DNA of 57,194 nt, taken from an uncultured Frankiales bacterium. Lineage in GTDB: Bacteria; Actinomycetota; Actinomycetes; Mycobacteriales; SCTD01. Below, piece by piece: positions 31,786 through 57,194 of the stretch. Every line of letters starts with the position of its first letter. Within the stretch, counting starts at the first letter, position 1. Where the stretch lies: NCBI GenBank assembly GCA_966212015.1, contig CBIHPE010000001.1, positions 1 to 57,194 of the forward strand. Direction: 5' to 3'. The position numbers were made by a program, and so were the translations under genes. The notes beneath the pieces are model-generated. The model had not been told where the DNA came from. It saw nothing but the letters and a program-made list of their open reading frames with translations, and made no database searches.

Positions 31786-32343
31786 CTATTCGCCGAGGGG
31801 GTCGCAGAGCTTGCAGGGGGTGAGGCCGGGAGTCGTCGCGGTGACTGACCGGAGGTTGTCGCGGCCGTCGACGGCGACGCAGTCGGTGCGGTGGATCATC
31901 GTTCCGGTCTTGGTGGCGACCAGGTCGACGGCGGCGACCGCCGTGCCGGCGGTGCCGCGCGCAGTGCGGGTCTGCGGCTGGGCCTGCGCCTGCATGAGCT
32001 CCTCCATGCGGAGCAGCACGGCCTGCATCTCCTCGCGCCCGACCCGGTTCTCCCGGACGAGCAGGGTCATCCAGTAGGCGAAGTAGACGAAGCCGCCGCC
32101 GATCACGAAGGCGAGGCCGAGCAGACCGCCCGAGATGAGGTACGGGACCTGCTCGAACAGCAGCACCGTGTGCGAGGCGCCGTACCAGCCGAGCAGGACG
32201 AAGACGACACCGAGCGGCAGCAGGGTGCCGCCGACGACGAGCATCCACCGGTCGCTGAAGGAGAACGTCGCGCGGGGCACCCGCAGGCCCTGGACGTTGG
32301 AGGCGAGCCGCTCCTGGCGGAGGTCGGCGTCGGCTGTGGTCAT
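31786..32343 (-). CDS. Two-TM membrane protein with a C-terminal Cys-x(n)-Cys-x2-Cys motif
   Basis: 185 aa from ATG 32343 (ATGA overlap with the upstream stop). Two hydrophobic helices. C-terminal MIHRTDC...GLTPCKLCDP resembles small Ada-like zinc-binding modules (inference). Confidence 0.7.
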   Translation of the reverse strand: MTTADADLRQERLASNVQGLRVPRATFSFSDRWMLVVGGTLLPLGVVFVLLGWYGASHTVLLFEQVPYLISGGLLGLAFVIGGGFVYFAYWMTLLVRENRVGREEMQAVLLRMEELMQAQAQPQTRTARGTAGTAVAAVDLVATKTGTMIHRTDCVAVDGRDNLRSVTATTPGLTPCKLCDPLGE

Positions 32344-41240: not shown

Positions 41241-44200
41241 GTGAGGCTGCGCATGCCGTATCGCCGGCTCGTGAGCCGTCCGGAGCTGCTGCTCCTGGTC
41301 GCGCTCGTCGTCGGCTGCTCCTTCCTCTCGGAGGGGCTCCCGCTCGGCATCGCCGGGCTGGGGGTCGTCACCGGCTGCATCGTCGGGCTGCACGCCATGG
41401 GCATCGTGCTCGTCTACTCGCGGACCCGGATCCTGTCCTTCGCGCAGTTCGGGCTCGGCGCGTTCGCCTCCACGCTGTTCTTCGCCTGCATCTTCTACAA
41501 CCAGTGGGCGGTCCTCGGCGACGGCGTCTGCAAGTGCCTGGCCCCGGACGGCGCCAACCTGTACCAGCTGCAGCACCACCCGACTGCCTACCGCGCGTAC
41601 CTCGCGCACGAGCACCCGTGGGCGCTGGTGCTCAACATCGTCATCACCGTCGTGCTCGCCGTCCTGTTCGCGCTGGACGCGGGCAAGACGGTCTACAACA
41701 AACACACGACGTTCTTCTACCGCGCCCCCGCGATCGGCCCGACGATCGCGACGCTGGCGTTCGCGGGGATCCTGAGCGGGGCTGCCGGGGCGCTGACCCT
41801 GCGCACGAAGCAGACCTTCGGCCACTACATCTGGCAGTGGTGGCCCTGGGGACCGGTGCCCGGCACGGGCATCCACGGGAAGCCGGCGGTCCCGGAGGGC
41901 ATCTTCGAGATGCCCCACCAGAAGGACCTCGGCTTCTCCCTGAGCGGCGGCGCGACGTTCCACCTGTACGACGTCCTGGCGGTGCTCACGGCGCTGCTCG
42001 CGCTCGGGTTCGTCACGCTCCGCTTCCGGGTGGGGCGCCGTGGCCTGCTGAGCCGGGCTGCCGCCGCCAACCTCGAGCGGTCGGCGACGCTCGGCGTCGA
42101 CGTCGTGAAGGAGAGCCGGGGCCCGTGGCGGGTCGCCGGTGCCCTGGCCGGCCTGTCCGGCGTGCTGGCGATCGCGACCGGTGGCGGCCAGCCCGTGACC
42201 GGGCTCGACGTGAGCGTCCTGACGAGCGTGCTCGCGGCCGTCGTCCTGGCCCGGCTGACCAGCCCGGGCTGGGCGCTGCTCGCCTCGGTGCTGCTGGGGG
42301 TCCTCGACCAGGGCATGTACTGGAACCTGCGGTCCCACACCCAGTACCAGGGGGCGCTGTTCGTCATCATCGGCGCGGCCCTGCTCATCCAGCGCGGGCG
42401 CAAGAACCGCGCCGAGCGCGACAGCGAGTCGGTCTTCACGTCCGCGACCGAGCCGCGCCGGGTGCCCCTGCAGCTGCGCAACGCGCCCGGCGTGAACGGC
42501 TTCCTGCGGGCCAACGCGCTGCTCGCGGGCGCGATCCTGATCAGCTACCCGCTCTTCACGACGCCCGGCCAGCTGAGCCAGGGCCTCGTCATCGTCGCCA
42601 ACATGGTGCTCGGCCTGTCGATCCTGGTGCTCTCTGGCTGGGGCGGGCTGGTCAGCCTCGGACAGCTGTCCGTGGCGGCCGTGTCGGCGTACGCCGTGGC
42701 GATCGCCGGCGCGACCTGGCACCTGCCCATGCCGCTGGCTCTCCTGCTCGGCGCCTTCGCGGCCGCGCTGGTCTCACCGGTGGTCGGCTTCCCGGCACTG
42801 CGGCTGCCCGGCCCGTTCGTCGCCATCATGACGCTGGCCTTCGCGCTCGCGATCCCGGCGGTGCTGCTCAACCCGGACCTGCTGGGCGACGCGCTCCCCG
42901 GCAACCTGCCGCGGCCCGTGCTCCTCGGCCTCGACTTCGACAGCGACCGCTACTTCTACTGGTTCTCGCTCCTGGTGCTCGCCGGCGTGCTCGCGCTCGT
43001 GACCGGCCTCCGCCGGTCCCGACTGCGCCGGGCGCTGATCGCGGCCCGCGACAACCAGCTCGCGACGGAGGCCTTCGGCGTCGACGTCACGCGGCTGCGG
43101 CTCGAGGCCTTCGCCGTGTCAGGCTTCATCGCCGGCCTGGGCGGCGGACTCCTGGCGTACGCCAACAGCGGGGTCCAGGGCGACGCCTTCGCGGCACCCA
43201 GCAGCATCCTGATCTTCCTGCTGGTCGTCATCGGCGGGCTGTCCGCCGTCTCTGGCCCGGTGCTCGGGGCCGGCACCTTCGGGCTCGTGTCGCTGCTCGG
43301 TCCGACCTGGGCCGGCACCTACATCGGCCTCGGCACGCTCTTCATCTTGGCGGCCCGGCCGAACGGCCTCGCGGGCCTCGTGACCAGCCTCCGCGACGCG
43401 GCGATCCGCGTGATCATGCACCTGCAGGGCAACGACCTCATCCGCTTCGGCGGCGCCCGGGTCGCCATCGCCGACCGCGGTGCACAGGCGCCGGTCGTGC
43501 CCGTGACCTACCGCCTGGTCGGCGACGGGTTCGGTCCGGTCGAGGGCACCCGGCTGCGGCCCGTCGAGGGCGTTGCCGCCGTGGAGCAGGTGGTCGAGCC
43601 CGAGCTGGTCGACGAGGTCGAGCAGGCGCTCTCCCGACTGGCCTGCCACCGGCTCGACGTCAGCTACGGCGGCGCGAGCGCCGTCACGGGCGTCTCGCTG
43701 TCGGTGGCTCCGGGCGAGATCCTCGCGATCGTCGGCCTCAACGGCGCCGGCAAGACGTCGCTGCTGCGGGCGCTCGCGGGTCTCGAGCCGGCGGCCCACG
43801 GCACCGTGGAGATCAACGGCACCGACGTCACCCTGATGCTCCCGCAGGACCGGGCCGGACTGGGCCTGGGCTACGTGCCGGGTGGGGCCGCGGTGCTCCC
43901 GACGCTGACGGTCCGGGAGAACCTCGTCGTCGCAGGCGGCGACGACGACTCGATCGAGGAGATGGTCACCCGCTACCCGGCCCTGGGTCAGCGGCTCGAG
44001 ACCATGGCCGGCAACCTGTCCGGCGGCGAGCAGCAGGTGCTCGCGCTCGCGCAGGGCGTCCTGCGCCGGCCGTCTGCTCTGCTCGTCGACGAGCTGTCAC
44101 TCGGCCTGTCGCCGGAGGCGCTGTCGGCGACGCTCGACCTGATCGTGCAGCTGGCCGACGAGGGCACAGCGATCGTGCTGGTGGAGCAGTCGATCAGCAC

Positions 44201-45164
44201 CGCGATGTCGATCGCCGACTCCGCGGTCTTCCTCGAGAACGGCCGGGTCCGCTACCAGGGGCCGGCGCAGTCGCTGCGCGACCACCCCGAGCTGTTCGCC
44301 AGCGTCGCCTTCGGCGCCGGCGGGGCGAGCACCGGTGGCGGCTCGGAGCTCTCCCGCGCTCTCAAGCAGCAGCGCACCGAGCGCGAGCCGGTGCTCGTCG
44401 TCGAGCACGTCAGCGCGGCTTACGGCGACGTGCGCGTCGTCGACGACGTGTCCTTCGACCTGGCGGCCGGCGAGGTCGTCGGCGTCCTCGGTCCCAACGG
44501 CGCCGGCAAGACGTCGCTGTTCGACGCGCTGTCGGGACTGCTGCCCGTCGCCGAGGGCACCGTCAACCTGCTGGGTACGGACATCACGGGGACCAGCTCG
44601 CACCGGCGCGCGCAGCTCGGCCTGATGCGCTCCTTCCAGAGCGTGCGGCTGTTCCCCTCCTTGACCGTCCGAGACACGATCGCCGTCGCCCTCGAGACGC
44701 GCCTGCAGGTGAAGAGCTCGGCCTTCGCCGGCTTGTGGCTGCCACCGGCGCGCGCCGAGGAGCGTCGCACCGACGAGCGCGTCGACGGCCTGCTCGAGCT
44801 GCTGCGCCTGGAGAAGGTCGCGGACGCCAGCATCTCCTCCCTGTCGCTGGGGTCGCGCCGGATGGTCGACCTGGCGTGCCAGCTGGCGGCGCGTCCGAAG
44901 GTGCTGCTGCTTGACGAGCCGGCTGCGGGTCTGGCGGCGGGGGAGACGGAGCTGCTGGGTCCGCTGGTGAGCCGGATCAGCAGCGACCTGGACTGCGCAG
45001 TCCTGATCATCGAGCACAACGTGCAGGTGCTCGCGTCCGTCGCCGACCGCCTGATCGCCATGAGCAACGGCGCGGTGATCGTCGAGGGTGCCCCGAACGA
45101 CGTCCTGAACGACCCCGAGGTGCGCGGTGCGTACTTCGGGTCCCGACAGCTGCAGAACTCCTGA
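41241..45164 (+). CDS. Single-polypeptide HAAT-type ABC transporter: LivH-like TMD + LivM-like TMD + LivF-like NBD + LivG-like NBD
   Basis: 1307-aa uninterrupted ORF. Two polytopic halves. NBD1: GLNGAGKTS / LSGGEQQ / LLVDELSLGLSP. NBD2: GPNGAGKTS / LSLGSRR / LLLDEPAAGL. ATG 41253 is an alternative start. Confidence 0.88.
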   Translation: MRLRMPYRRLVSRPELLLLVALVVGCSFLSEGLPLGIAGLGVVTGCIVGLHAMGIVLVYSRTRILSFAQFGLGAFASTLFFACIFYNQWAVLGDGVCKCLAPDGANLYQLQHHPTAYRAYLAHEHPWALVLNIVITVVLAVLFALDAGKTVYNKHTTFFYRAPAIGPTIATLAFAGILSGAAGALTLRTKQTFGHYIWQWWPWGPVPGTGIHGKPAVPEGIFEMPHQKDLGFSLSGGATFHLYDVLAVLTALLALGFVTLRFRVGRRGLLSRAAAANLERSATLGVDVVKESRGPWRVAGALAGLSGVLAIATGGGQPVTGLDVSVLTSVLAAVVLARLTSPGWALLASVLLGVLDQGMYWNLRSHTQYQGALFVIIGAALLIQRGRKNRAERDSESVFTSATEPRRVPLQLRNAPGVNGFLRANALLAGAILISYPLFTTPGQLSQGLVIVANMVLGLSILVLSGWGGLVSLGQLSVAAVSAYAVAIAGATWHLPMPLALLLGAFAAALVSPVVGFPALRLPGPFVAIMTLAFALAIPAVLLNPDLLGDALPGNLPRPVLLGLDFDSDRYFYWFSLLVLAGVLALVTGLRRSRLRRALIAARDNQLATEAFGVDVTRLRLEAFAVSGFIAGLGGGLLAYANSGVQGDAFAAPSSILIFLLVVIGGLSAVSGPVLGAGTFGLVSLLGPTWAGTYIGLGTLFILAARPNGLAGLVTSLRDAAIRVIMHLQGNDLIRFGGARVAIADRGAQAPVVPVTYRLVGDGFGPVEGTRLRPVEGVAAVEQVVEPELVDEVEQALSRLACHRLDVSYGGASAVTGVSLSVAPGEILAIVGLNGAGKTSLLRALAGLEPAAHGTVEINGTDVTLMLPQDRAGLGLGYVPGGAAVLPTLTVRENLVVAGGDDDSIEEMVTRYPALGQRLETMAGNLSGGEQQVLALAQGVLRRPSALLVDELSLGLSPEALSATLDLIVQLADEGTAIVLVEQSISTAMSIADSAVFLENGRVRYQGPAQSLRDHPELFASVAFGAGGASTGGGSELSRALKQQRTEREPVLVVEHVSAAYGDVRVVDDVSFDLAAGEVVGVLGPNGAGKTSLFDALSGLLPVAEGTVNLLGTDITGTSSHRRAQLGLMRSFQSVRLFPSLTVRDTIAVALETRLQVKSSAFAGLWLPPARAEERRTDERVDGLLELLRLEKVADASISSLSLGSRRMVDLACQLAARPKVLLLDEPAAGLAAGETELLGPLVSRISSDLDCAVLIIEHNVQVLASVADRLIAMSNGAVIVEGAPNDVLNDPEVRGAYFGSRQLQNS

Positions 45165-46189
45165 TGAGCCCCACGAGAGGACCCCAGAAGAACATGGCCA
45201 CTCCCACGGTCACCCGCCAGCGCAACAAGCCGGCGTCGATGTCCGCATCCGGGTTCCAGGAGGCGTTCGAGCGGATCGTTGCGAACGCGTCGCTTGTCAT
45301 CAAGGGCAAGGAGGAGGCGCTGCGGCTGGTGCTGACGGCGATGATCGCTGACGGTCACTGCTTGTTGGAGGACATGCCGGGGACGGGCAAGACGATGATG
45401 GCGCGGGCGCTGTCGACGTCGATCAACGCCAAGAGCAACCGCATCCAGTGCACGCCGGACCTGCTGCCGTCGGATGTGACGGGCGCGCCGGTGCTGGACA
45501 CGCGGAACGGGACGTTCACCTTCCGTGAGGGGCCGGTGTTCGCGAACGTGCTGCTGGTCGATGAGATCAACCGGGCGACGCCGAAGACGCAGTCGGCGCT
45601 GCTGGAGGCGATGCAGGAGCGGAACGTCACGCTGGACGGCGTGACGCACAAGCTCCCGACGCCGTTCCTGATCCTGGCGACGCAGAACCCGGTGGAGCAG
45701 GCGGGCACGTTCCAGCTGCCTGAGGCGCAGCTGGACCGGTTCCTGATCAAGCTGTCGGTCGGCTACCCGGACCGGGAGGCGGAGGGTGAGCTGCTGGATG
45801 CGAACAAGTCGACGGAGGCGATCACCCGCCTGGGGTCGGTGTCGAGCACGGAGGAGATCTTGGCGATGCAGGCGTTCTGCCAGGACGTGGACCTGCCTGA
45901 GCCGGTGAAGATGTACATCGTCGACGTGTGCCAGGCGACCCGCACCGACCCGTCCCTGCTGATGGGCGCGAGCTCGCGTGCCTCGATCTCGCTCGTCAAG
46001 GCGTCACGTGTCCGCGCCGCGTCGCAGGGCCGTGACGTGGTCCTGCCGGACGACGTCCGCGCGCTGCTCTCGGCCGTCATCGAGCACCGGCTGATCCTGA
46101 CCCCGGACGCGCAGCTGCGCGACGAGACCGTCACCAACGTCCTCGAGCGGATCCTCACCCGCATCCCCGTCCCCCTCGGCGTCGGCTAG
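45164..46189 (+). CDS. MoxR-family AAA+ ATPase
   Basis: 341 aa. Walker A DMPGTGKT, Walker B VLLVDEINRATPKTQSALLEAMQE, LPEAQLDRF. The start shares 1 nt with the ABC stop (TGATG). ATG 45194 is an alternative start. Confidence 0.92.
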   Translation: MSPTRGPQKNMATPTVTRQRNKPASMSASGFQEAFERIVANASLVIKGKEEALRLVLTAMIADGHCLLEDMPGTGKTMMARALSTSINAKSNRIQCTPDLLPSDVTGAPVLDTRNGTFTFREGPVFANVLLVDEINRATPKTQSALLEAMQERNVTLDGVTHKLPTPFLILATQNPVEQAGTFQLPEAQLDRFLIKLSVGYPDREAEGELLDANKSTEAITRLGSVSSTEEILAMQAFCQDVDLPEPVKMYIVDVCQATRTDPSLLMGASSRASISLVKASRVRAASQGRDVVLPDDVRALLSAVIEHRLILTPDAQLRDETVTNVLERILTRIPVPLGVG

Positions 46190-46195
46190 CTGAAG

Positions 46196-47464
46196 ATGGC
46201 TGCCCTCTCCCGTCGGCGCGCGACCGGTCCCAGCTCGGAGGTTGCGGGCTTCGGCGCGCTCGTCGAGCGGTTCACCGGTCTCACGTCAGCTGGGGCGATC
46301 GTCCTCGTGGCGAGCCTGCTCGGCTACGTGCTGGCCCGCCAGCTCGGTGGCCGCGCGCTGTTCCTGCTCGTCTCCGCGGGTGTCCTGCTCGTGGTCGCCG
46401 CCGCCGTCACCAGCCGTCGCAAGCGGCGGCTCACCGCTGAGCGGTCCGCGCTCCCGACGCGGATGCGGGTCGGGCAGGTCGCTGAGGTCGAGCTGACGGT
46501 GAAGTCGCCGGGGCGGCTCCGGGCCTTCGTCGTGCAGGACCACATGTCCTCGCTGCTCGCCGACCAGGTGCGGGTCCCGGTGCCGACCGTCGGTTCGGAG
46601 CAGGACTTCGTGCACGCGTACTCGATCCGCCCGACGCTCCGTGGCGTCTACCAGCTGGGCCCGCTGGCGGCGGAGTGGACCGACCCGTTCGGGCTCGCGC
46701 GGCACCAGCAGAAGCTCAGCGACCCGGTCGACGTGATCGTGCACCCGACGACCGACGCGGTGTTCGACCGGCCGCTGACCCGGATGTGGGAGGACCCGCC
46801 GTTCCGCCCGCCGGTGTCCAAGCCGTGGCCGCAGGGCTTCGAGTTCTACGGCATGCGCGACTACGTGCCCGGTGACGACCCGCGCCGGATCGTCTGGACC
46901 GCCATGGCCCGCACCGGGAAGTACCTCGTCCGCGAGTCGGAGCAGGGCATCACCGACCGCATCACCGTCGTGCTCGACAACAACGCCAGGGCGCACTCGC
47001 CGGGCTACCCGTCGGAGACCTTCGAGCTGGCCATCCGGGCCTGCGCCTCCCTCGGCGCCTGGAACATCAAGCAGGGCTTCTCGGTCCGCTTCCTCACCAA
47101 CGACTCGGGCCAGGGCCCGGAGCTGCGGGGCAGCAAGGCCCGCATCAGCCTGCTCGACGAGCTGGCCAAGCTCGAGCTCACCGACGTGCCCGTCAGCAAG
47201 GCCATCGAGCGGGTCATCACCGAGCGCCGCGGCGGCACCCACATGTGCCTGGTCTCAACCGGGTTCGACAACCGCACGGCCACGCGCGTCCGCATGCTCA
47301 CCGACAAGGGGATGTCGCTCGTCGTCTGCCTGGTGCGCTGGGAGGACAGCGACCCGAACGCCGCGCGGCGGGCCCGCGAGATCGGCGCGCAGGTCGTGCA
47401 GGTCTCCCCGGGCGACCAGCTCGAGCACGCCTTCGCCCACGGCCTCGGGCTGGCCGTCCGATGA
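46196..47464 (+). CDS. DUF58 (VWA-like) domain protein
   Basis: 422 aa. Two N-terminal TM helices. DUF58 signature FYGMRDYVPGDDPRRIVW...RESEQG. Confidence 0.88.
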   Translation: MAALSRRRATGPSSEVAGFGALVERFTGLTSAGAIVLVASLLGYVLARQLGGRALFLLVSAGVLLVVAAAVTSRRKRRLTAERSALPTRMRVGQVAEVELTVKSPGRLRAFVVQDHMSSLLADQVRVPVPTVGSEQDFVHAYSIRPTLRGVYQLGPLAAEWTDPFGLARHQQKLSDPVDVIVHPTTDAVFDRPLTRMWEDPPFRPPVSKPWPQGFEFYGMRDYVPGDDPRRIVWTAMARTGKYLVRESEQGITDRITVVLDNNARAHSPGYPSETFELAIRACASLGAWNIKQGFSVRFLTNDSGQGPELRGSKARISLLDELAKLELTDVPVSKAIERVITERRGGTHMCLVSTGFDNRTATRVRMLTDKGMSLVVCLVRWEDSDPNAARRAREIGAQVVQVSPGDQLEHAFAHGLGLAVR

Positions 47465-50355
47465 CCTCGATCCTCGACCAGCCCGCTGACCTCGACCACC
47501 TCGAGAAGCCCGACCTCGACCACCTCGCCGACGACCCCGCCGAGCACGGCCCGGAGGACGAGCAGGAGCGCGCTCTCGCGCCCGCGGCTCTCGCGCTCGC
47601 AGCCGTGTCGGCCCTGCTGTCGTCCGCCGGGGCCGCGTGGATGGTCGGCGGCATCTTCCGGGGCCTCGAGGCCCGCCTCGTCGGACTGCTCGGCGTCCTC
47701 ATCGGCTGCGGCTTCGTCTACCTCGGCACCCGGCTGCGCAGCTCCGTCCTCCAGTACCTGACCCTGCCGGCAGCGCTCCTCGCCGGTGCCGTTCTCATGA
47801 GCAGCGCGTCCGGGGCGGGTACGTCCTCGCTGCCGGCGCTCGTCAAGGACGCCGCGACCACGTCGCAGGTGCTCCAGCCGCCGATCGACTTCGCGCCCGG
47901 CTGGCGTCTGATCCTCGTCGTCATCCTCGCGCTGCTGTCGTCCGCTGCCTGCTCGCTCGCGCTGTCGCTGAGCCGGCCCCGGCTCGCCGTCGCCGTGCCC
48001 GCCCCGCTCGTCGTCGCACCCGCCTTCATCCAGCCGAGCTCGTCGGCGGTCGTCACGAGCTCCGTGAGCGTCGGCCTCGTGATGATGGCGCTCGCCACGT
48101 CGTACGCCGCCGACGGCGTGGGCGACACCTTCGACGCGAGCTTCGAGCTGCGCCGCCTCGCGCGCAGCGTGCTCGCCGGCGGCCTGCTCATCGCGACGCT
48201 CATCGCCGCGAGCAAGGTGTCGTTCCTGTTCCCGGAGAAGGACAAGCACCACGTCGTCCCGCCGCGTCGCCCACCCGTGAGCCCGCCGCAGCCGGACGTC
48301 CCGCTCTACACGGTCACCGGCGCGCTGAACGGCCCGCTCGAGGCCGGCGTCATCGACGTCTACTCCGTCAAGGAGGGCGCCTGGCTGCTGCCCCCCGTCG
48401 ACAACCTGCGGCTGAAGCGCCTCAAGTCCGACGCGGACATCCCGGGTGCGCCGGCGCCGTTCGGCGCCTCGACGAGCTTCAGCGTCACGGTGAAGCAGGC
48501 GACCGGTCACCTGCTGCCGTCGGTCTCGTCGGCGCTGCACCTCGACGGTGATGTGAAGGTCGACTACGACCCCCGCACGCAGTCGCTGTCCCTCCCCTCG
48601 AGGCCGGTCTACACCGGGCTGCACTACACGGTCACGACGAACCCCGTCCCCGACGGGAAGCAGCTCAGCGCGGTCAAGGGCGACGTCCCGTACGCGCTGA
48701 GGGAGTTCCTCACCGCGCCCGACGCGCCGCCGGCCGTCACCGACCTGCTCGCGAAAGCCCCGCAGGCGCCTTACGCGAAGCTGCAGTCGCTCCGCGCGGC
48801 GCTCTACCGGAAGTTCACCGCCGCGGGACAGGGCAAGCCGACGGACGTCGACGCCGACCGGGTCGTGCAGCTGCTCCGCGGCGGCACCGGCAACCCCTAC
48901 GAGCTCACCGCCTCCGAGGCGCTGCTGGCCCGCTGGGCCGGCATCCCGAGCCGCATCGGGTTCGGCTACTACAACGGCAACCCGCTCGACGACGGCTCCG
49001 TCGAGTTCCGCCCCGCCAACGCCGCGACCTACCTCGAGGTCTACCTCGCGCCCTACGGCTGGGTGCCCATCATCGGTGTCCCGCCGCGTGCGCAGCAGAG
49101 CCTGTCCAACAACCAGCGCAACAACGACTCGAGCATCGCCGCATCGCCCGAGCTCGGCATCAACGTCTACCTGCCCGTGAAGCAGGACAACCGGTTGCCG
49201 CTCTACGAGTACGCCCGCTACTACCTGGTGCGCGCACTCCCGATCGCCCTCGGCGTGGGCGCGCTCGTGCTCCTCTACCCCGTCGTCCTGAAGCGGGTCC
49301 GCCGGCGGCGGCGCGCGGCCTGGGCGAGCCAGTTCGGTCCCGCCGGTGCGATCGCGGTGGCCTACTGCGCCCTGCGTGACCAGATGATCGACCTCGCCCT
49401 GCCGGGGCGCGGCCTGACCCCCCTGGAGCTGGTCGAGATCATCGAGGAGGACGAGGAGCACGCCGAGCTGGCCTGGCTCGTCACGCGCGGGCTGTGGGGC
49501 GACCTGCGGCACCGCCTCACGGAGGAGGACGCGGCGGCAGCGCGGGCCCTCAGCGCCTCGGTGAGCGCGCGGCTGTCGAAGGCCCAGCCCGAGACGGCGC
49601 GGCTCCTCGCTGCCGTCTCCCGGGCCAGCCTCCGGCACCCGCACAGCCTCGAGGTGCCCAACGCGTGGTGGGAGCTGCGGCTGCCGCGGCTGCGCGTGCC
49701 CCGGCTGCGGGCGCTGCGCCCCAGCGTCGCGACGTCGCTCCTCGCCGTGCTCGCGACGCTGACCCTCGGCGGCTGCTCGTCCGGCGGGCACCACGCCGAG
49801 CCGAGCGTCGCCTTCCCGACCCGGCTCGCCCCGACTGCCGTCGCAGGGCTCGAGGTGCACGAGGAGAAGCGCGCCACGGCTGCCTACGTCAAGGCCGCCA
49901 AGGACGACGCGGTGATCGTCAACGAGGGCAAGGTGCTCTCCTTCAACAAGAACGGGCTCGTCCAGGCCGCCCTTCAGGTCGCGCAGCTCAAGCCTGGCTA
50001 CGTGAGCACGGACAAGGAGGTCCGGGACGCGATCACCCGGAGTGTCGGCAGCGGCAACCAGGTCGCGAAGCTCAGGCCCGAGGGCTCGCACGACCTCTAC
50101 AACGTCGTCGACGGCAGCCAGCGCATCTACCTCTGGTTCCCCACGGCGAAGTCGATGGCCCTGCTGGTCCTGCGCACGCAGATCACCGAGGGAGCCGCGG
50201 AGGCTCTCGCGCGCGGCCTCATCGACTACTCCGACGGTGGCGACATCAGCGAGGCAGCACTCTCCGCAGCCTTCGCCGACTCCACCGGACCGACCCCCAG
50301 CGGCACCCCGACCAGCAGTCCCAGCCCCAGCGCCTCCCCGGAGCCGACGCCATGA
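47461..50355 (+). CDS. Polytopic transglutaminase-like protein (apparently lacking the Cys-His-Asp triad) with DUF4129-like region and an extra C-terminal lipoprotein-like module
   Basis: 964 aa from ATG 47461 (ATGA overlap). N-terminal multi-TM region. TGase-core-like stretch ARWAGIPSRIGFGYY...YLEVYLAPYGWVPI. A TM, then an acidic DUF4129-like segment, then an in-frame lipobox LTLGGC at 49759-49776. Confidence 0.8.
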   Translation: MTSILDQPADLDHLEKPDLDHLADDPAEHGPEDEQERALAPAALALAAVSALLSSAGAAWMVGGIFRGLEARLVGLLGVLIGCGFVYLGTRLRSSVLQYLTLPAALLAGAVLMSSASGAGTSSLPALVKDAATTSQVLQPPIDFAPGWRLILVVILALLSSAACSLALSLSRPRLAVAVPAPLVVAPAFIQPSSSAVVTSSVSVGLVMMALATSYAADGVGDTFDASFELRRLARSVLAGGLLIATLIAASKVSFLFPEKDKHHVVPPRRPPVSPPQPDVPLYTVTGALNGPLEAGVIDVYSVKEGAWLLPPVDNLRLKRLKSDADIPGAPAPFGASTSFSVTVKQATGHLLPSVSSALHLDGDVKVDYDPRTQSLSLPSRPVYTGLHYTVTTNPVPDGKQLSAVKGDVPYALREFLTAPDAPPAVTDLLAKAPQAPYAKLQSLRAALYRKFTAAGQGKPTDVDADRVVQLLRGGTGNPYELTASEALLARWAGIPSRIGFGYYNGNPLDDGSVEFRPANAATYLEVYLAPYGWVPIIGVPPRAQQSLSNNQRNNDSSIAASPELGINVYLPVKQDNRLPLYEYARYYLVRALPIALGVGALVLLYPVVLKRVRRRRRAAWASQFGPAGAIAVAYCALRDQMIDLALPGRGLTPLELVEIIEEDEEHAELAWLVTRGLWGDLRHRLTEEDAAAARALSASVSARLSKAQPETARLLAAVSRASLRHPHSLEVPNAWWELRLPRLRVPRLRALRPSVATSLLAVLATLTLGGCSSGGHHAEPSVAFPTRLAPTAVAGLEVHEEKRATAAYVKAAKDDAVIVNEGKVLSFNKNGLVQAALQVAQLKPGYVSTDKEVRDAITRSVGSGNQVAKLRPEGSHDLYNVVDGSQRIYLWFPTAKSMALLVLRTQITEGAAEALARGLIDYSDGGDISEAALSAAFADSTGPTPSGTPTSSPSPSASPEPTP

Positions 50356-51332
50356 AGCGACCCCTCGTCCTGGCCCTCGCAGCCTGCGCCCTCGCGACCG
50401 CCTGCGGGCCGACGACCCACCTCGACCTGCGGCTGCGCGGCGTCGAGATCACGTCGGTGCGTGTGCTGACGCCGGCGATCACCCTCGTGCCCCCGGCGAC
50501 CACGCCTCCGCCCGCGTCGCTCCCGCCGGTGCCGCCCATCACGACGTACCTGCCCCCGTCGCCGGCTCCGGGCGCGAGCGCGCCGCCCGCGGTCCTGACC
50601 CCGCCGCCCGCGTGTCCGACGGCCGGCCAGTTCGACGCCCCCGAGTTCGCTGCTCCCGCTGCGGTGAAGGGGATCCCGGCGAACGCGGAGTACGTGCAGA
50701 AGGCGCTCGGGACGTATGCCGAGAACGGCACCCAGAAGCCGCTGGACGGCATCGTCGACGTGAAGGTCGTCCGGCTCCCCGACAGCACCACGACGGCGAA
50801 CCAGGCCGTCCGGTCCTGGCGGGTGGAGCGGCACAACGGCAAGGCGAGCTCGGTCGAGGTCTACCAGCTCGTCGGTCCGTCGAGCCTCGCAAGCGCGGCC
50901 TCCCCGGTCTCGCCGGGGATCTACCTCGTCGGGCTGGCCTGGGACGACCCGACGCGCGGCAAGCTCACGTTCCAGCCGACCGGCAACGGGCTGTGGATCC
51001 TGCCCGACCCGGTGGCCGAGGCGACGAACGACACCCAGTACGTCGGCACCGCCACCGACCCGAACACGGTGACCACGCTCGAGCTGCTGCGCAACGTGCG
51101 GGCGCACAAGCGGGTCGACGCCTGCGGCAAGCTCATCGACACCTTCACGGTCGAGATGAGCGGCACGCTCGTGTCGCCGACCGACCAGTACCAGGTGAGC
51201 TGGACGCAGCAGCTCGCCACGGCCTACGGCGGTCTCGACGTCGCGAGCACGTTCTCCCTCGTGTCGCCGCTGACGACGTTCCGCTGGAGCAGGTCGCTCA
51301 CCTCGACGACCGTCCCGAAGGCGTCGTCGTGA
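50352..51332 (+). CDS. Hypothetical lipoprotein with a Pro-rich linker
   Basis: 326 aa. MKRPLVLALAACALATACG lipobox. ATGA overlap with the upstream stop. Pro-rich tract, then a beta-looking domain. Confidence 0.8.
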   Translation: MKRPLVLALAACALATACGPTTHLDLRLRGVEITSVRVLTPAITLVPPATTPPPASLPPVPPITTYLPPSPAPGASAPPAVLTPPPACPTAGQFDAPEFAAPAAVKGIPANAEYVQKALGTYAENGTQKPLDGIVDVKVVRLPDSTTTANQAVRSWRVERHNGKASSVEVYQLVGPSSLASAASPVSPGIYLVGLAWDDPTRGKLTFQPTGNGLWILPDPVAEATNDTQYVGTATDPNTVTTLELLRNVRAHKRVDACGKLIDTFTVEMSGTLVSPTDQYQVSWTQQLATAYGGLDVASTFSLVSPLTTFRWSRSLTSTTVPKASS

Positions 51333-51538
51333 GCGCCCCGCTCCGCCGGCCGGGGCGCACCCCCGGCAGCGTCAACCTCGCCGTCGGCCTGGGGCTGCTG
51401 GTGCTGCTGCTCCCGCTCCTCCTCAACGCGGCGACCTCCTCGCCCCCGACGGCGGCGGAGTTCTCGCCGAACGCCAAGCAGGTCATCAAGAAGGCGCCGC
51501 CCGGCCAGGCCGCCGCCGTGACCGGGACAGGGCAGTGA
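51329..51538 (+). CDS. 69-aa signal-anchor ORF, probably the N-terminus of the downstream binding protein
   Basis: GTG 51329 (GTGA overlap). RRPGR n-region and hydrophobic core VNLAVGLGLLVLLLPLLL. Ends at TGA 51536-51538 in the same frame as the next ORF. Confidence 0.6.
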   Translation: MSAPLRRPGRTPGSVNLAVGLGLLVLLLPLLLNAATSSPPTAAEFSPNAKQVIKKAPPGQAAAVTGTGQ

Positions 51539-51547
51539 TCGGCCCCT

Positions 51548-51577
51548 GGCGCCGGTCCGTCCGCCGGACCTGGCGCC
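51548..51577 (+). other. GC-rich hairpin 10 nt downstream of the in-frame TGA
   Basis: GGCGCCGGTCC (51548-51558) pairs with GGACC-T-GGCGCC (51566-51577). 11 bp, one bulged T, 7-nt loop GTCCGCC. Confidence 0.6.
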
Positions 51578-51625
51578 TCGCCGTCCCCCACTCCGAGCCC
51601 GACCCCGACGCCCACCCCGAGCCTG

Positions 51626-53068
51626 GTGCCCCAGAACCAGCTGAAGCGGTGCGTCGGCCCGCCCCCGCTGCGGCAGATCGAGGACCCGCAGTCGCCGCCC
51701 TGCATCGCCTACTGGAACGGCGACAACGGCGGTGCCACGTCCAAAGGCGTGACGAAGGACGCGGTCTACGTCGCGGTGCCCACGCCCGAGAACGCGAAGG
51801 ACCAGTACGACGCGCTGTTCGCGTTCTTCAACGCGCGGTTCCAGCTCTACGGGCGCAAGCTCGTCCCTAACTACTGCGACACCACGGCATCCGGCAGCAG
51901 CGACCAGGCGACGCAGGTCTCGGACGCAGCGACCAACGCCTCCGGGTGCAACGGCAAGTACCACGTGCCCTTCATCTCGACGATGTACCGCACGGCCAAC
52001 GGGCCCTACTACATGCCGGAGATGGGCTGCCGCTACAAGGTCATCGCGGTCGGCTCCTACTCGCCCTACGACAGCAAGCAGCTGGGCAAGTGCCCGGGCT
52101 ACGAGTACCAGTACCCGATGCTCGTCGACGACGAGTTCGCCAACATCGGCGAGTGGATGTGCAAGCGGCTCGCGGGCAGGAAGGCGGAGTACGTCTCCGG
52201 CAACGACGGCTCGACGCCGGGCAAGCCGCTCAGCTCGCTGACCCGAAGGTTCGGGATCCTCATCGAGCCCTTCACCGACGACGACCCGGTCATGCGGCGC
52301 AGCGCGTTCAACCCGATGACGTCGCGGTTGCGCGCCTGCGGAGCCGATGCCCCGGCGAAGGACCAGATCCTCAACCCCGTCGTCGGCGAGTTCGACGCAG
52401 CGTCGGCCCAGAACACCATGCTGCAGCTGAAGAACGACGGCGTCACCTCCGTCGTCTGCATGTGCAACTTCTTCAGCTTCGGCACGCTGGCCCGGGCGGC
52501 GTCGACCAACGCCTACCACCCTGAGTGGATCAGCTCGACCTTCGGCCTCAACGACGTCAACAGCTCGTTCTTCCTCGGGGCGGCGCCGACGGACCAGATG
52601 CAGCACCTGTTCGGCGTCACCTTCCAGCCGCCCCTGGTCCGCCCCCTGCTCAACCCCTACAACATCGCCGTGCACGAGGGGAACCCGGCACAGGGCGGCG
52701 ACACGACCAGCTTCGTCGAGGCCAAGCTCGAGATCTACCGCGCGCTGCTGGTGATCGCCTCCGGCATCCAGATGGCCGGCCCGAAGCTGACCCCGAAGAC
52801 CTTCCAGCAGGGGCTCGAGAAGACCACGTTCCCGAACCCCGACACCGAGACGCACGCCGGCCATGTCGGCTTCAAGCCCAACACCTACTCGATGACCGAC
52901 GACGGCGCCGAGTGGTACTGGTCCACGACCGCCCGCGGCCCGTTCACCGACAGCGACAGCCACCCCGGAACGGTCTGCTACCTCAACGACTTCCGGCGCT
53001 ACACCCTCGGCAACTGGCCCACCGGCAAGGGTCCGTTCTTCACCGGCACCTGCAAGTCGTCGCCGTGA
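51626..53068 (+). CDS. Cys-rich type-1 periplasmic-binding-fold (LivJ-like) protein lacking its own signal peptide
   Basis: First ATG/GTG/TTG after the TGA is GTG 51626. The frame is open from 51539 and encodes a Pro/Ser/Thr/Gly linker. 12 Cys. PBP1-like start GVTKDAVYVAVP. Confidence 0.75.
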   Translation: MPQNQLKRCVGPPPLRQIEDPQSPPCIAYWNGDNGGATSKGVTKDAVYVAVPTPENAKDQYDALFAFFNARFQLYGRKLVPNYCDTTASGSSDQATQVSDAATNASGCNGKYHVPFISTMYRTANGPYYMPEMGCRYKVIAVGSYSPYDSKQLGKCPGYEYQYPMLVDDEFANIGEWMCKRLAGRKAEYVSGNDGSTPGKPLSSLTRRFGILIEPFTDDDPVMRRSAFNPMTSRLRACGADAPAKDQILNPVVGEFDAASAQNTMLQLKNDGVTSVVCMCNFFSFGTLARAASTNAYHPEWISSTFGLNDVNSSFFLGAAPTDQMQHLFGVTFQPPLVRPLLNPYNIAVHEGNPAQGGDTTSFVEAKLEIYRALLVIASGIQMAGPKLTPKTFQQGLEKTTFPNPDTETHAGHVGFKPNTYSMTDDGAEWYWSTTARGPFTDSDSHPGTVCYLNDFRRYTLGNWPTGKGPFFTGTCKSSP

Positions 53069-54288
53069 GCCAGGACGTGAGAGAGCTCGGCTTCGACCCC
53101 GAGCGGCTGGCCCGCATCGACAAGCTGCTCGCCGGCTACGTCGATGACGGCAAGCTGGCGGGCTGGCAGGTCGCGATCACCCGCAAGGGCCAGGTGGTGC
53201 ACGACGCCGGCTACGGCTGGCGCGACCGCGAGGCCGGCAAGCCCGTCGAGAGCGACACCCTGTGGCGGATCGCGTCGATGACGAAGCCGATCACCTCGGT
53301 GACGGCGATGACCCTCTGGGAGGAGGGCGTCTTCGACCTCAACGAGCCGGTCAGCACGTGGATCCCGTCGTTCGCGGACGCGCGGGTCTACACCGGCGGT
53401 GTCGGCCGCACGATGCAGACGAAGCCGGCCACCGAGCCGGTGCGGGTCTGGCACCTGCTCTCGCACACCTCCGGCATGACGGCCGGGTTCCTGCGCAGCT
53501 CGCACGTCGACCAGCTCTACCGCGACGCGGGCTACGAGTTCGGCGCGCCGGCAGGGCACGACCTCGCGGCATGCGTCGACGACTGGGCCCGGCTGCCGCT
53601 GCTGTTCAACCCCGGGAGTGCCTGGGGCTACGGCGTCTCGACCGACGTCGTCGGCCGGCTCATCGAGATCTGGACCGGCCAGCGCCTCGACCAGGCCTTC
53701 GCGAACCGGGTGCTCGAGCCGCTCGGGATGAAGGACACCTGCTGGTGGGTCGGGGACGCGCGCGCAGATCGGCTCGCGGCGCTCTACGTCCCCGATGACG
53801 ACTTCCAGGCCGTGCGCTACGAGCTCAGCGACCACGTGGGGCGCAGCGAGCCGACGATCCACTCCGGTGGTGGCGGGCTCATCAGCACGATGCCGGACTA
53901 CCTCCGCTTCACGCAGATGCTCAACGGCGACGGCGAGCTCGAGGGCACCCGCATCCTGTCGCCGCGCACGCTGCGGCTGATGCGCTCCAACCACCTGGTC
54001 GGCGACCTCGACGACAACCGCGCCGACGGCTTCGCCGAGACGACGTTCCCGGGCGTCGGCTTCGGTCTCGGCTTCGCTGTCCTCGAGGACCCGCTGCTGA
54101 TGCACTCCGTCGCCAACAAGGGCGAGTACTTCTGGGGCGGCATCTACGGGACGACCTTCTGGTGCGACCCGGTCGACGACCTGTCGTGCGTCTTCATGAC
54201 GCAGCTGCTGCCGTCCGACATGCACCCGATCCGCGCTCAGCTGCGGCAGCTCGTCTACAGCGCGCTCATCGACAGGAGACCCGCGTGA
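53065..54288 (+). CDS. Beta-lactamase-family serine hydrolase (paralog 1, no signal peptide)
   Basis: 407 aa from GTG 53065 (GTGA overlap). SxxK motif IASMTKPIT. Class-C/EstB-like. Confidence 0.85.
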   Translation: MSQDVRELGFDPERLARIDKLLAGYVDDGKLAGWQVAITRKGQVVHDAGYGWRDREAGKPVESDTLWRIASMTKPITSVTAMTLWEEGVFDLNEPVSTWIPSFADARVYTGGVGRTMQTKPATEPVRVWHLLSHTSGMTAGFLRSSHVDQLYRDAGYEFGAPAGHDLAACVDDWARLPLLFNPGSAWGYGVSTDVVGRLIEIWTGQRLDQAFANRVLEPLGMKDTCWWVGDARADRLAALYVPDDDFQAVRYELSDHVGRSEPTIHSGGGGLISTMPDYLRFTQMLNGDGELEGTRILSPRTLRLMRSNHLVGDLDDNRADGFAETTFPGVGFGLGFAVLEDPLLMHSVANKGEYFWGGIYGTTFWCDPVDDLSCVFMTQLLPSDMHPIRAQLRQLVYSALIDRRPA

Positions 54289-55472
54289 GCGGCTTCACGC
54301 CAGCGGGTCTCGCCCGGCTCGACAAGCAGCTGGCCAAGCACGTCGACGAGGGTCGCCTCGCCGGCTGGCAGGTCGCGGTCACCCAGCACGACGAGGTGGC
54401 CCACGACGCCGCCTACGGCTGGCGCGATCGCGAGGCCGGGCTGGCCGTCGAGAGCGACACGATCTGGCGCATCGCGTCGATGACCAAGCCGATCACCTCC
54501 GTCGCCGCCATGACGCTGTGGGAGGAGGGGGCGTTCGACCTCAACGACCCGATCAGCCGGTGGCTGCCCGAGTTCTCCGACATGCGCGTCTACACCGGCG
54601 GCATCGGGCGCACCCTCACGACAGTGCCTGCGACCGAGCCGATCCGGGTGTGGCACCTGCTGACCCACACGTCCGGGCTCTCCGCCGGGTTCATGCGCGT
54701 CTCCCACGTCGACGAGCTCTACCGCGACGCCGGGTACGACCTGGGCTCGCCGGCGCAGAACGACAGCCTCGCCGAGTGCGTCACCGACTGGGCCGGTCTG
54801 CCGCTGCGGTTCCAGCCCGGCACGGCCTGGGGGTACGGCGTCAGCCACGACGTCCTTGGCCGGCTCGTCGAGATCTGGTCCGGCCAGACCCTCGACGTCG
54901 CCTTCCGCAACCGCGTGCTCGGGCCGCTCGGCATGACGGACACGACCTTCTGGTGCGACCCGTCCCGCGCCGACCGTCTGGCCGCGCTCTACCAGCCCGG
55001 CGACGGCGACCTGGCCGTCCGCGGCGAGTGGCCCGACAGCCCCACCATGCCGAAGGTCCTGTCCGGGGGCGGGGGCCTCTACAGCACCCTCGCCGACTAC
55101 ACCCGGTTCACGCGCATGCTCGCGAACGGGGGTGAGCTCGAGGGCACGCGAGTCCTCGCCCCCCGCACCGTCGACCTGATGCGCTCCAACCACCTCAAGA
55201 GCGACCTCGGGCAGCTGTCCACCGGCGGCTTCGCCGAGACCAGCTTCGACGGCATGGGCTTCGGCCTCGGCTTCGCCGTCGTCCTCGACCCGCTGAGGAC
55301 GCACAGCATCGCCCGACCCGGCGAGTTCAACTGGGGCGGCATCTTCAGCACCTGCTTCTGGGTCGATCCGGTCGAGGAGCTGAGCTGCGTCTTCATGACT
55401 CAGCTCATGCCGTCCAGCACGCATCCGCTGCGACAGCAGCTGCGCCAGCTGGTCTACAGCGCCGTCGCCTAG
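54285..55472 (+). CDS. Beta-lactamase-family serine hydrolase (paralog 2, no signal peptide)
   Basis: 395 aa from GTG 54285 (GTGA overlap). Long stretches identical to paralog 1 (YGWRDREAG, WRIASMTKPITSV, MTLWEEG). Confidence 0.85.
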   Translation: MSGFTPAGLARLDKQLAKHVDEGRLAGWQVAVTQHDEVAHDAAYGWRDREAGLAVESDTIWRIASMTKPITSVAAMTLWEEGAFDLNDPISRWLPEFSDMRVYTGGIGRTLTTVPATEPIRVWHLLTHTSGLSAGFMRVSHVDELYRDAGYDLGSPAQNDSLAECVTDWAGLPLRFQPGTAWGYGVSHDVLGRLVEIWSGQTLDVAFRNRVLGPLGMTDTTFWCDPSRADRLAALYQPGDGDLAVRGEWPDSPTMPKVLSGGGGLYSTLADYTRFTRMLANGGELEGTRVLAPRTVDLMRSNHLKSDLGQLSTGGFAETSFDGMGFGLGFAVVLDPLRTHSIARPGEFNWGGIFSTCFWVDPVEELSCVFMTQLMPSSTHPLRQQLRQLVYSAVA

Positions 55473-55498
55473 TCAGATCGGGTCATCTTTCGATCTGA
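55473..55498 (+). terminator. Hairpin TCAGATCG-N10-CGATCTGA immediately after the operon's last stop
   Basis: Perfect 8-bp stem starting 1 nt after TAG (55470-55472). AT-richer than its surroundings. No clear U-tract. Confidence 0.35.
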
Positions 55499-55582
55499 GT
55501 CGGGATGTCCATGGTTCGACCGACATCGGTGTGGTGATCTTTGGGCACTCGAGTCCCAGACGCCCGATGAGGGGTGATCGCG

Positions 55583-57194
55583 ATGCGCATCACACATCGT
55601 CCCCCCTGGCGCCTCGCCGCACTGACCGCCGCTGCGGTCGCCGCAGCGGGAGCGGTCACCGCCTCGGCGCGCCCTGCTCCACCGCCGCCGCTCTCGCCGG
55701 TGATCGTGCAGGCGCCCAGCACCGCCCTTGCCCGCAGTGCTGTCCAGTCGGTCATCACGCTGGCGGGTGGCGTCGGCAGCATCGGCTTCGACCTGCCGCT
55801 GGTGAACGGTGTCGTCGCCAACCTCACCGCCGTCGAGATCGGCCAGCTCACGTCGTACGTCGTGACCCCCGACGCGACCGTGCTCACGGCCGGCAAGCCG
55901 AGCCCGGCGCCGTCCCCCACCCGGCAGCTCGACAACGTCTTCCCGCAGGTGACCGGCGCGACCGGGGTCATCGCGAACGGGAACAGCGGGCAGGGCGTCG
56001 GCGTCGCGGTGCTCGACACCGGCATCGCGCCGCTCGCCGACTTCGCCGGGCGGTTGCGCACCGGCGTCGACCTGTCGGGTGAGGGCAACGCCCAGCTCGA
56101 CAGCTACGGCCACGGCACCTTCGTCGCCGGCCTGGTCGCCGGCAGCGGGGCGTCGAGCGGCGGGACCTACCTGGGAGAGGCACCCGGGGCGACGCTCGTA
56201 CCGGTGAAGGTCGCCGGCAAGTCGGGCAGCACGACGCTGTCGACCGTGATCCGCGGACTGCAGTGGATCCAGGCCAACACGACCGATGGCATCCGCGTCA
56301 TCAACATGTCCATCGGCGCCATCCCGACGACGTCGACCGCGCTGAACCCGCTCGACCAGGCCGTCGAGACGATGTGGCGCAGCGGCTTCGTCGTGGTGAC
56401 GTCGGCCGGCAACAACGGCCCGAACAAGGGGACCATCACCTCACCCGGTGACGACCCGCTGGTCGTCACGGTCGGCGCCTTGGACGACAAGGACACTGTC
56501 GCGACGACGGACGACGCGGTGCCGTCGTTCAGCAGCCAGGGCCCGACGGCCTGGGACGGCTGGTGGAAGCCCGACCTGCTGGCCCCCGGCAAGTCCGTCG
56601 TCAGCGTCACCTCGACCACGTCGGTGATCTGGAACGCGAACAAGTCGGCGCGGGTCGGCACGAGAAACTTCGTCGGGTCCGGTACCTCGTTCGCGACTGC
56701 TGTCGTCAGCGGCGCGGCCGCCATGCTGCTGCGCGAGAACCCGCTCGCAACACCCGACAACGTCAAGGCTGCGCTGCTCACCACGACCAACGCCGGGCCC
56801 AGCCCTCCGCAGTCGCCGTTCGTCCAGGGCCACGGCGTCCTCGACGTCGGCAAGGCCGTCGACGAGCCCCTGATCGGCATGACGCAAGACGTCAGCGCGA
56901 TCGTCCCGCCGGCCGCGCTCAACACCCCGATCTCGCTTCTGTCGCGCCAGGTCGTCTCGACCTGGGCGACGGTCAGCCCGTCCGAGCAGCTGCTCTACCC
57001 GGCGCTCTACCCGTTCCCGTACTCCGGTGACGCGACCACATCGACGGACAACGGCTCGCCGCTCTTCCAGTCGTCGGCGTGGAACAGCAGTGCGTGGAAC
57101 TCGTCGGCCTGGAACTCGAGCGCGTGGAACAGCAGCGCCTGGAACTCGTCGGCCTGGAACTCGAGCGCGTGGAACAGCAGCGCCTGGAACTCGT
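55583..57194 (+). CDS. Secreted S8 (subtilisin-like) serine peptidase with a C-terminal SSAWN repeat array (3' end outside the window)
   Basis: ATG 55583, preceded by GAGGGG. Signal peptide. I9-like propeptide. Catalytic D (AVLDTGI), H (HGTFVAG), S (GSGTSFATA). The frame is open to the window end. Confidence 0.9.
   Translation, partial: MRITHRPPWRLAALTAAAVAAAGAVTASARPAPPPPLSPVIVQAPSTALARSAVQSVITLAGGVGSIGFDLPLVNGVVANLTAVEIGQLTSYVVTPDATVLTAGKPSPAPSPTRQLDNVFPQVTGATGVIANGNSGQGVGVAVLDTGIAPLADFAGRLRTGVDLSGEGNAQLDSYGHGTFVAGLVAGSGASSGGTYLGEAPGATLVPVKVAGKSGSTTLSTVIRGLQWIQANTTDGIRVINMSIGAIPTTSTALNPLDQAVETMWRSGFVVVTSAGNNGPNKGTITSPGDDPLVVTVGALDDKDTVATTDDAVPSFSSQGPTAWDGWWKPDLLAPGKSVVSVTSTTSVIWNANKSARVGTRNFVGSGTSFATAVVSGAAAMLLRENPLATPDNVKAALLTTTNAGPSPPQSPFVQGHGVLDVGKAVDEPLIGMTQDVSAIVPPAALNTPISLLSRQVVSTWATVSPSEQLLYPALYPFPYSGDATTSTDNGSPLFQSSAWNSSAWNSSAWNSSAWNSSAWNSSAWNSSAWNSSAWNS
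57071..57194 (+). repeat. 15-bp (SSAWN) tandem repeat with an exact 45-bp higher-order unit
   Basis: Eight SSAWN pentapeptide units. 57101-57145 and 57146-57190 are identical 45-mers. The array continues to the last base of the window. Confidence 0.95.

Follow-up and report, generated by a model that had tools for sequence, protein, structure and literature searches.

In programmed stop-codon readthrough, as known from murine leukemia virus (MuLV) gag-pol with its UAG codon and pseudoknot and from the UGA of the phage Qbeta A1 gene, an open reading frame (ORF) continues in frame past a stop codon, and about 9 nucleotides (nt) 3' of the stop there is a stable structure. Bacterial selenocysteine insertion sequences (SECIS) of the fdhF type similarly pair a UGA codon with a close stem-loop carrying a bulged U. 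In this study, we analyzed a gene that shares these outward features in a 57,194-nt stretch of DNA (here named the window) from an uncultured Frankiales bacterium (assembly GCA_966212015.1, contig CBIHPE010000001.1, positions 1 to 57,194). The gene, located at 51329-53068 on the + strand, is predicted to encode a membrane-anchored substrate-binding protein of the LivJ/LivK type and is interrupted by a TGA at codon 70, which is followed by a strong hairpin. Comparison with a sister strain and with orthologs revealed that the TGA replaces GGA (Gly70) through the substitution of one base and is private to this assembly, the gene being otherwise a single ORF. As a candidate for recoding the site does not matter; what the comparison shows is a private one-base lesion in an otherwise ordinary gene.

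One reading frame interrupted by a single TGA

The gene and its parts are as follows.

51329-53068, + strand: whole gene of 579 codons, predicted to encode a membrane-anchored, Cys-rich, LivJ/LivK-type substrate-binding protein; interrupted at codon 70
51329-51535, + strand: N-terminal piece of 69 codons with a GTG start, an RRPGR n-region, a hydrophobic segment of about 20 residues and the conserved juxtamembrane motif APPTAAEFSPNAxQVIKKAPPGQAA
51536-51538, + strand: in-frame TGA; GGA (Gly70) in the sister strain and GGG, GGC or GGT (Gly) in the closest orthologs
51539-51625, + strand: variable, low-complexity linker rich in Gly, Ala, Pro, Ser and Thr, SAPGAGPSAGPGASPSPTPSPTPTPTPSL; coding sequence, not an intergenic spacer
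51626-53068, + strand: remainder of 480 amino acids (aa), publicly annotated as P0001 (100% identical), with a predicted type I periplasmic-binding-protein fold, 12 Cys and no export signal of its own

Translation of 51329-53068 revealed exactly one stop in the frame, the TGA at codon 70. An earlier note, made from the DNA letters by a model, had proposed that an ORF of 69 aa and one of 480 aa share a single frame split by one TGA, and with 579 codons and a single stop this description proved correct. The residues across the stop codon read ...AAAVTGTGQ-X-SAPGAGPSAGPGASPSPTPSPTPTPTPSLVPQNQLK, and the base directly after the TGA is U. The GTG start at 51329 overlaps the TGA of the preceding gene (GTGA) and has GAAGG 9 nt upstream. 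As the same note had stated, the 480-aa part contains 12 Cys, and the 87 nt 3' of the TGA contain no ATG, GTG or TTG, which we found to hold for any frame. The first start is the GTG at 51626, upstream of which no purine-rich Shine-Dalgarno sequence is present (CCCACCCCGAGCCTG-GTG). From this GTG the public record calls the 480-aa protein P0001, while the 69-aa piece is unrecorded, and its exact sequence was not found in the protein collection.

A homolog search with the fused sequence yielded 644 matches. Among the best 120 of these, to which our figures on length and coverage refer, nearly all are single proteins of 548 to 603 aa covering 92 to 100% of the fused query, the exception being P0001 with its 480 aa. 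Homologs of 560 to 590 aa cover 99 to 100% of the fused sequence, and shorter matches lie on short contigs or are labelled partial. Since the homologs span the fused sequence as single proteins, the split does not reflect two chance ORFs. All relatives come from metagenome-assembled genomes (MAGs) of uncultured Frankiales, Mycobacteriales, Acidimicrobiales, Dormibacteria and similar lineages.

In an alignment of 27 sequences (A1), the anchor and the juxtamembrane motif are among the best-conserved parts of the protein, with invariant or near-invariant columns at L32, P39, P40, E44, F45, P47 and P57. The RR pair and the hydrophobic N-terminal segment, judged by inspection, are kept in all full-length orthologs. 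The alignment supports the earlier assignment of the upstream piece as the signal anchor of the same protein. The column of the TGA lies at the end of the juxtamembrane motif, in ...NGTG[EQ]-G-[SA]APG..., and is occupied by Gly in the closest orthologs; the linker at 51539-51625 that follows aligns with equally variable linkers of all orthologs. We also read the DNA of orthologs by tblastn at 15 loci, in all of which the frame runs uninterrupted through the site. The orthologous codon is GGG, GGC or GGT at loci sharing the motif and another sense codon elsewhere, and neither the 27 aligned proteins nor the 15 loci read as DNA have a stop at this position. The earlier note had suggested looking among orthologs for a sense codon or a conserved TGA plus hairpin and had raised the case that all of them consist of two separate genes. 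What we found was the opposite: among the roughly 120 proteins examined and the 15 loci read as DNA, every ortholog is one gene, and all carry a sense codon.

The most informative relative was found in the 90% cluster of P0001, which holds a second member, P0121, with 579 aa and no interruption. P0121 equals the fused product of the window except for Asn65 (Thr in the window) and Gly70 (the stop). It is encoded on a contig of 16.2 kb (ENA ERZ27336873 NODE_1632, here named L082; 6.5x coverage by its name), which aligns without gaps to window positions 43329-57194 at 99.74% identity, with 36 mismatches over 13.9 kb. Base 51536 is G in L082 (GGA, Gly) and T in the window (TGA). Because the outgroups carry Gly, Gly is the ancestral state, and the stop is one G-to-T step away from the sister allele.

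Over the whole alignment, the differences between L082 and the window comprise 21 synonymous and 15 non-synonymous changes, mostly at third positions, and no indel. The 509 codons 3' of the stop differ by 4 synonymous changes and 0 non-synonymous ones, so the binding domain has not long been drifting as a dead gene. Judged from these sequences, the stop would be either very recent or not real. Two further differences lie close to it.

51522, + strand: AAC (Asn65, sister) to ACC (Thr, window); the Asn is conserved in nearly all orthologs
51550, + strand: GGT (sister) to GGC (window), synonymous; in the 5' arm of the hairpin, where the G.U pair of the sister becomes G-C

A cluster this tight, with three differences in 29 nt, would turn up by chance at some point of the alignment with P = 0.076. 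Positions 51522, 51536 and 51550 are spaced exactly 14 nt apart. The change at 51550 makes the GGCGCC arms perfectly complementary, and template-switch correction of a quasi-palindrome would yield the same outcome. An exact-pattern scan of Joint Genome Institute (JGI) metagenome contigs with N at the variable base gave 0 matches and hence no third allele; the TGA allele and the GGA allele are represented by one contig each.

For the public annotation, the comparison means that P0001, as a cytoplasmic-looking protein of 480 aa, is a truncation artefact of the TGA and that the real gene product is an anchored binding protein of 579 aa. Users of the databases see a truncated binding protein without a signal sequence.

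We also scanned the window for further in-frame interruptions and found none; only three normal gene boundaries remained. The scan combined GC content at third codon positions (GC3) with the requirement that GC content at first positions exceed that at second positions (GC1 > GC2), as GC3 alone was swamped by the antisense frame, which shares third positions. The site at 51536 itself fails both filters because its linker has an atypical codon-position composition. TGA ends five of the seven operon genes checked, and 51536 is the sole internal TGA among them. A reassignment of UGA, either to Gly (code 25) or as in code 4, was rejected on the grounds of these regular TGA stops and of the lack of other in-frame interruptions in the window.

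Origin of the hairpin 3' of the stop

51548-51577, + strand: hairpin of 12 bp (6+6) with a bulged U at 51571 and the 5-nt loop UCCGC; encodes G-A-G-P-S-A-G-P-G-A

The hairpin described in the earlier note is real, bulged and strong, with two details corrected: it has 12 bp and not 11, and it begins 9 nt, not 10, past the last base of the stop codon. Folding of the 30-mer gave -23.3 kcal/mol, a value that the + strand of the 57-kb window reaches in only three places. For the 36-mer we obtained z = -4.1 against dinucleotide shuffles, which fell to only -1.3 in a context of 101 nt. In the sister strain, where the stop is lacking, this hairpin folds at -21.4 kcal/mol. That of the window is 1.9 kcal/mol stronger because of the T-to-C change at 51550.

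Several observations explain the structure by the encoded peptide. Synonymous recoding of the linker peptide with local codon usage, run in 1000 trials that averaged -21.1 kcal/mol, produced a hairpin at least as strong (-23.3 kcal/mol) in 21% of cases, whereas shuffling of the codon order reached this strength in only 0.3%. The linker peptide folds back at the RNA level because GGC/GCC and CCG/CGG are reverse-complementary codon pairs. Neither the nucleotide sequence of the linker nor that of the hairpin is conserved among orthologs. Many ortholog linkers hold hairpins that are strong for their locus, at differing positions and with differing sequences, and when the recoding control was applied to 26 loci, structure showed no sign of being selected (median p 0.59, Fisher p 0.82). 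We conclude that the near-palindromic Gly/Ala/Pro linker peptide generates the hairpin as a by-product and that the hairpin is not a selected RNA element. The codons that high-GC actinobacteria prefer for Gly/Ala/Pro linkers are reverse complements, which is enough to create very strong hairpins, and a hairpin beside a stop in such a linker is therefore weak evidence for recoding.

Two other roles for the structure were considered and rejected. An intrinsic terminator was dismissed, as there is no T-run 3' of the hairpin and a terminator scan gave 0 sites. The idea that linker hairpins act as a conserved translational pause for membrane targeting appeared promising at first and was rejected by the synonymous-recoding control.

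Elsewhere in the window, 30-nt windows at -23.3 kcal/mol or lower occur at about 30587-30620 and 31930-31960 (both strands) and at about 35542 and 39484 (- strand), all apparently within coding sequence. The strong fold at about 30587-30620 is an inverted repeat, CTCGCCGCCC / GGGCGGCGAG.

Readings of the stop codon

The reading that we favor, if by no wide stretch of confidence, is a true recent nonsense allele of the strain or population. The orthologs are intact, and a single step leads from a sense codon to the stop. The pattern of differences between the two assemblies, with no indels and mostly third-position changes, looks like true strain divergence and not like a noisy assembly. We infer from this that the base is real rather than miscalled. 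Translation would then stop after the 69-residue signal anchor. The binding domain, lacking its own start codon, ribosome-binding site and export signal, would not be made in useful amounts, and the allele would be a loss-of-function or nascent-pseudogene variant. One nonsense allele among about 50 genes is unremarkable. The observation in the earlier note was accurately described, but the feature is ordinary and the kind of event already known. That note had left three options; the GGA of the sister and the unbroken orthologs agree with two of them, a recent nonsense mutation or pseudogene and a sequencing error, and speak against the third, programmed readthrough.

Some points weigh against a true nonsense allele. 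The base may have been miscalled, the TGA allele being carried by one contig only. Three of the 36 differences fall within the 29 nt at or beside one of the strongest hairpins of the window, and for two of them, G70* and the N65T that affects a conserved Asn, the window carries the derived state. The clustering is a hint that the changes arose locally, by error or by clustered mutation, and not as independent substitutions. Furthermore, inverted repeats and GGC motifs trigger Illumina sequence-specific errors (PMC3141275).

The main competing explanation is accordingly an artefact of sequencing or consensus building, in which the true base at 51536 is G and the T came from a miscalled base, from low coverage or from strains that were co-assembled into a chimeric consensus. 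The region is hard to sequence because of its GC-rich inverted repeat and repeated GGC/GCC, and the gene would then be intact and ordinary. We regard such an artefact as a serious possibility, although not as the probable explanation. It would account for the GGA in an assembly 99.74% identical, for the clustering of differences around the hairpin, with the replacement of a conserved Asn, and for the absence of non-synonymous changes beside 4 synonymous ones 3' of the stop, as expected of an intact gene. All relatives, and evidently the window too, are metagenome-derived contigs, the sister contig having only 6.5x coverage by its name, and the Illumina errors in question lead to false SNP (single nucleotide polymorphism) calls, more so in high-GC genomes (Nakamura et al. 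2011, PMC3141275). The other 33 differences, however, resemble real divergence, with third positions prevailing and no indels, so the assembly is not generally noisy. Miscalls of this type usually copy the preceding one or two bases (PMC3141275), and the bases preceding the site, A-G on the + strand and T-C on the - strand, fit neither G to T nor C to A. Such errors are also strand specific and usually outvoted in a consensus. With the trigger motifs present and the copy pattern absent, Illumina sequence-specific error is only a possible cause of the T.

Readings in which the TGA is functional fared worse. In stop-codon readthrough, programmed or fortuitous, the hairpin would slow the ribosome or hinder release factor 2, and a set fraction of ribosomes would decode the UGA by a near-cognate tRNA, so that some binding protein of full length is exported beside a short anchor peptide. 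An in-frame UGA with a coding-quality frame downstream, synonymous differences only in the downstream domain, a 12-bp hairpin of -23.3 kcal/mol at the spacing of known recoding stimulators and its gain of 1.9 kcal/mol over that of the sister are all compatible with this. Neither the sister strain nor any ortholog has the stop, though, so there is nothing that selection has maintained. The hairpin was there before the stop, is unconserved and is no stronger than the peptide dictates. In addition, the aligned residue lies in a variable linker, and the two products have no obvious benefit. The +4 base of the stop in the window, U, is not a leaky context; U after a stop is reportedly, from work of Poole, Brown and Tate in 1995, the strongest termination context in E. 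coli. The option in the earlier note that the hairpin programs readthrough is not supported, given the private stop, the stop-free hairpin of the sister and the lack of conservation or of selection beyond the peptide, and we consider readthrough of either kind very unlikely. We give equally little credence to a readthrough site that was born only one or two mutations ago, in which a real TGA met a pre-existing hairpin that raises near-cognate UGA decoding and a useful full-length fraction is exported. If true, such a site would have been caught in a natural population, and the T-to-C change at 51550 could be its first adaptive adjustment.

A genuinely split gene, with a 69-aa anchor and a 480-aa domain translated from GTG 51626, for example by termination-reinitiation, would agree with the public annotation of P0001 as a protein and with the use of overlapping stop and start codons in this operon (GTGA at 51329-51332 and 53065-53068). 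It is highly improbable, since no ortholog is split and the 87-nt gap aligns as a coding linker in all of them. GTG 51626 lies 87 nt past the stop without a Shine-Dalgarno sequence, and its product would have no export signal despite 12 Cys and a periplasmic-binding-protein fold. Decoding of the UGA as selenocysteine, with the hairpin as a bacterial SECIS, is effectively refuted. The resemblance is superficial: within about 10 nt the UGA is followed by a stem-loop with a bulged U, as in fdhF. In contrast to the fdhF element, the loop here is UCCGC and the U bulges from the 3' arm. The position is occupied in homologs by Gly rather than by Cys or selenocysteine and is in a low-complexity linker, not at a redox site, and the sister strain encodes Gly with the same hairpin. 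A scan of 51300-51750 with Rfam 15 at E <= 10 found no family, SECIS or other, at the hairpin, and no tRNA genes, including any for tRNA-Sec, were found within the 57-kb window.

The binding protein, its gene cluster and known systems

Scans of the fused protein against Pfam and NCBIfam found no family. PF13458 (Peripla_BP_6) gave weak matches in 3 of 27 homologs (best E = 5.5e-5), a few database relatives are labelled with it, and searching PDB sequences with a profile brought up nothing beyond a chance match (E = 0.99). We modeled the 480-aa remainder with AlphaFold2 from an alignment of 61 sequences (A2) and obtained a predicted local distance difference test (pLDDT) value of 93.4 and a predicted template modeling score (pTM) of 0.92. 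The top matches of the model in a Foldseek search of the PDB were Leu/Ile/Val-binding proteins (4n0q, 1z15, 3td9 and 4gnr; probability 1.0, identity about 12%) with target-normalised template modeling scores (TM-scores) of 0.5 to 0.72; related receptor ligand-binding domains were also matched. On the basis of the model, the domain is predicted to be a LivJ/LivK-type (type I) binding protein, in line with the solute-binding domain proposed in the earlier note, and the gene product is predicted to be the substrate-binding protein of the linked Liv-type ATP-binding cassette (ABC) transporter cluster.

The family of this binding protein (644 matches), with its LivJ-like fold, seven invariant Cys and conserved juxtamembrane motif, is barely covered by Pfam. 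It is restricted to MAGs of uncultured Actinomycetota, Dormibacteria and similar lineages and is widespread in uncultured Frankiales/Mycobacteriales. Some of the MAGs are rich in paralogs, with at least 10 loci each in CAZCSK01 and CAZLKN01. We see the family as a minor lead.

The neighboring genes are listed below; upstream gene calls and Pfam families were transferred from L082 via the gapless alignment.

41253-50355, + strand: upstream part of the cluster, from the transporter to the transglutaminase-like gene
41241-45164, + strand: ORF of the fused Liv-type ABC transporter, which ends at 45164; BPD_transp_2 plus two ABC_tran domains, about 1303 aa
45164-46189, + strand: MoxR ATPase (from L082)
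46196-47464, + strand: DUF58 protein (from L082)
47461-50355, + strand: transglutaminase-like protein with a Transglut_core match
50352-51332, + strand: gene upstream of the interrupted one, 326 aa, with a lipoprotein-like N terminus and without a Pfam family; ends in a stop that overlaps the start of the interrupted gene
53065-54288, + strand: beta-lactamase-family serine hydrolase (PF00144), starting with a GTG that overlaps the binding-protein gene's TGA
54285-55472, + strand: second copy of a beta-lactamase-family hydrolase (PF00144)

The order of the cluster is thus ABC transporter, MoxR, DUF58, transglutaminase-like protein, a protein of about 320 aa, the binding protein and one or two beta-lactamase-family hydrolases, the two hydrolases of the window matching PF00144 with E-values of 1.4e-65 and 1.3e-66. 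The sister contig and an Actinomycetota genome of 66% identity share the cluster (about 41253-55472), and a Dormibacteria genome has it in rearranged form (L083, L084); the 326-aa gene upstream of the binding-protein gene is syntenic at L079, L081, L083 and L084. The cluster is unusual, and its transporter combines a permease and two ATPase domains in one protein of about 1300 aa. Neighboring genes overlap by 4 nt (GTGA or ATGA) at 47461-47464, 50352-50355, 51329-51332, 53065-53068 and 54285-54288, which is a usual sign of translational coupling. By such coupling, the early stop at 51536 could reduce translation of both hydrolase genes downstream as well.

Outside the cluster, the only Rfam family found in the window is ASdes (RF01781), a mycobacterial antisense small RNA of desaturase genes, located at 7204-7271 on the - strand and scoring above the gathering threshold (71.6 bits, E = 3.5e-15). 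The contig ends inside a 45-nt tandem repeat at 57077-57194 (2.6 copies, 97% matches) that also occurs in the sister contig and is probably the reason why the assembly stops at 57194.

Compared with described systems, the protein shares its predicted fold and the linkage to BPD_transp_2/ABC_tran with the LivJ/LivK (Peripla_BP_6) proteins of HAAT-family ABC transporters. It differs from them in being about 100 residues larger, in having seven invariant Cys and in its identity of about 12% to solved binding proteins, and it carries an N-terminal anchor with a juxtamembrane motif instead of a plain signal peptide or lipobox. Unlike in MuLV and Qbeta readthrough, the stop and the structure are unconserved, and the structure is present stop-free in the sister and explained by the peptide. 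Unlike at bacterial SECIS elements, the aligned residue is a Gly in a linker, and no selenocysteine machinery is visible in the window. The locus agrees most closely with a nonsense-mutation pseudogene or strain-level loss-of-function allele, or with a metagenome base-call error: a single derived change, intact sister and ortholog alleles and a pristine coding signal downstream. From these it differs in nothing of kind, its oddity being a strong hairpin 9 nt 3' of the stop and a cluster of three SNPs.

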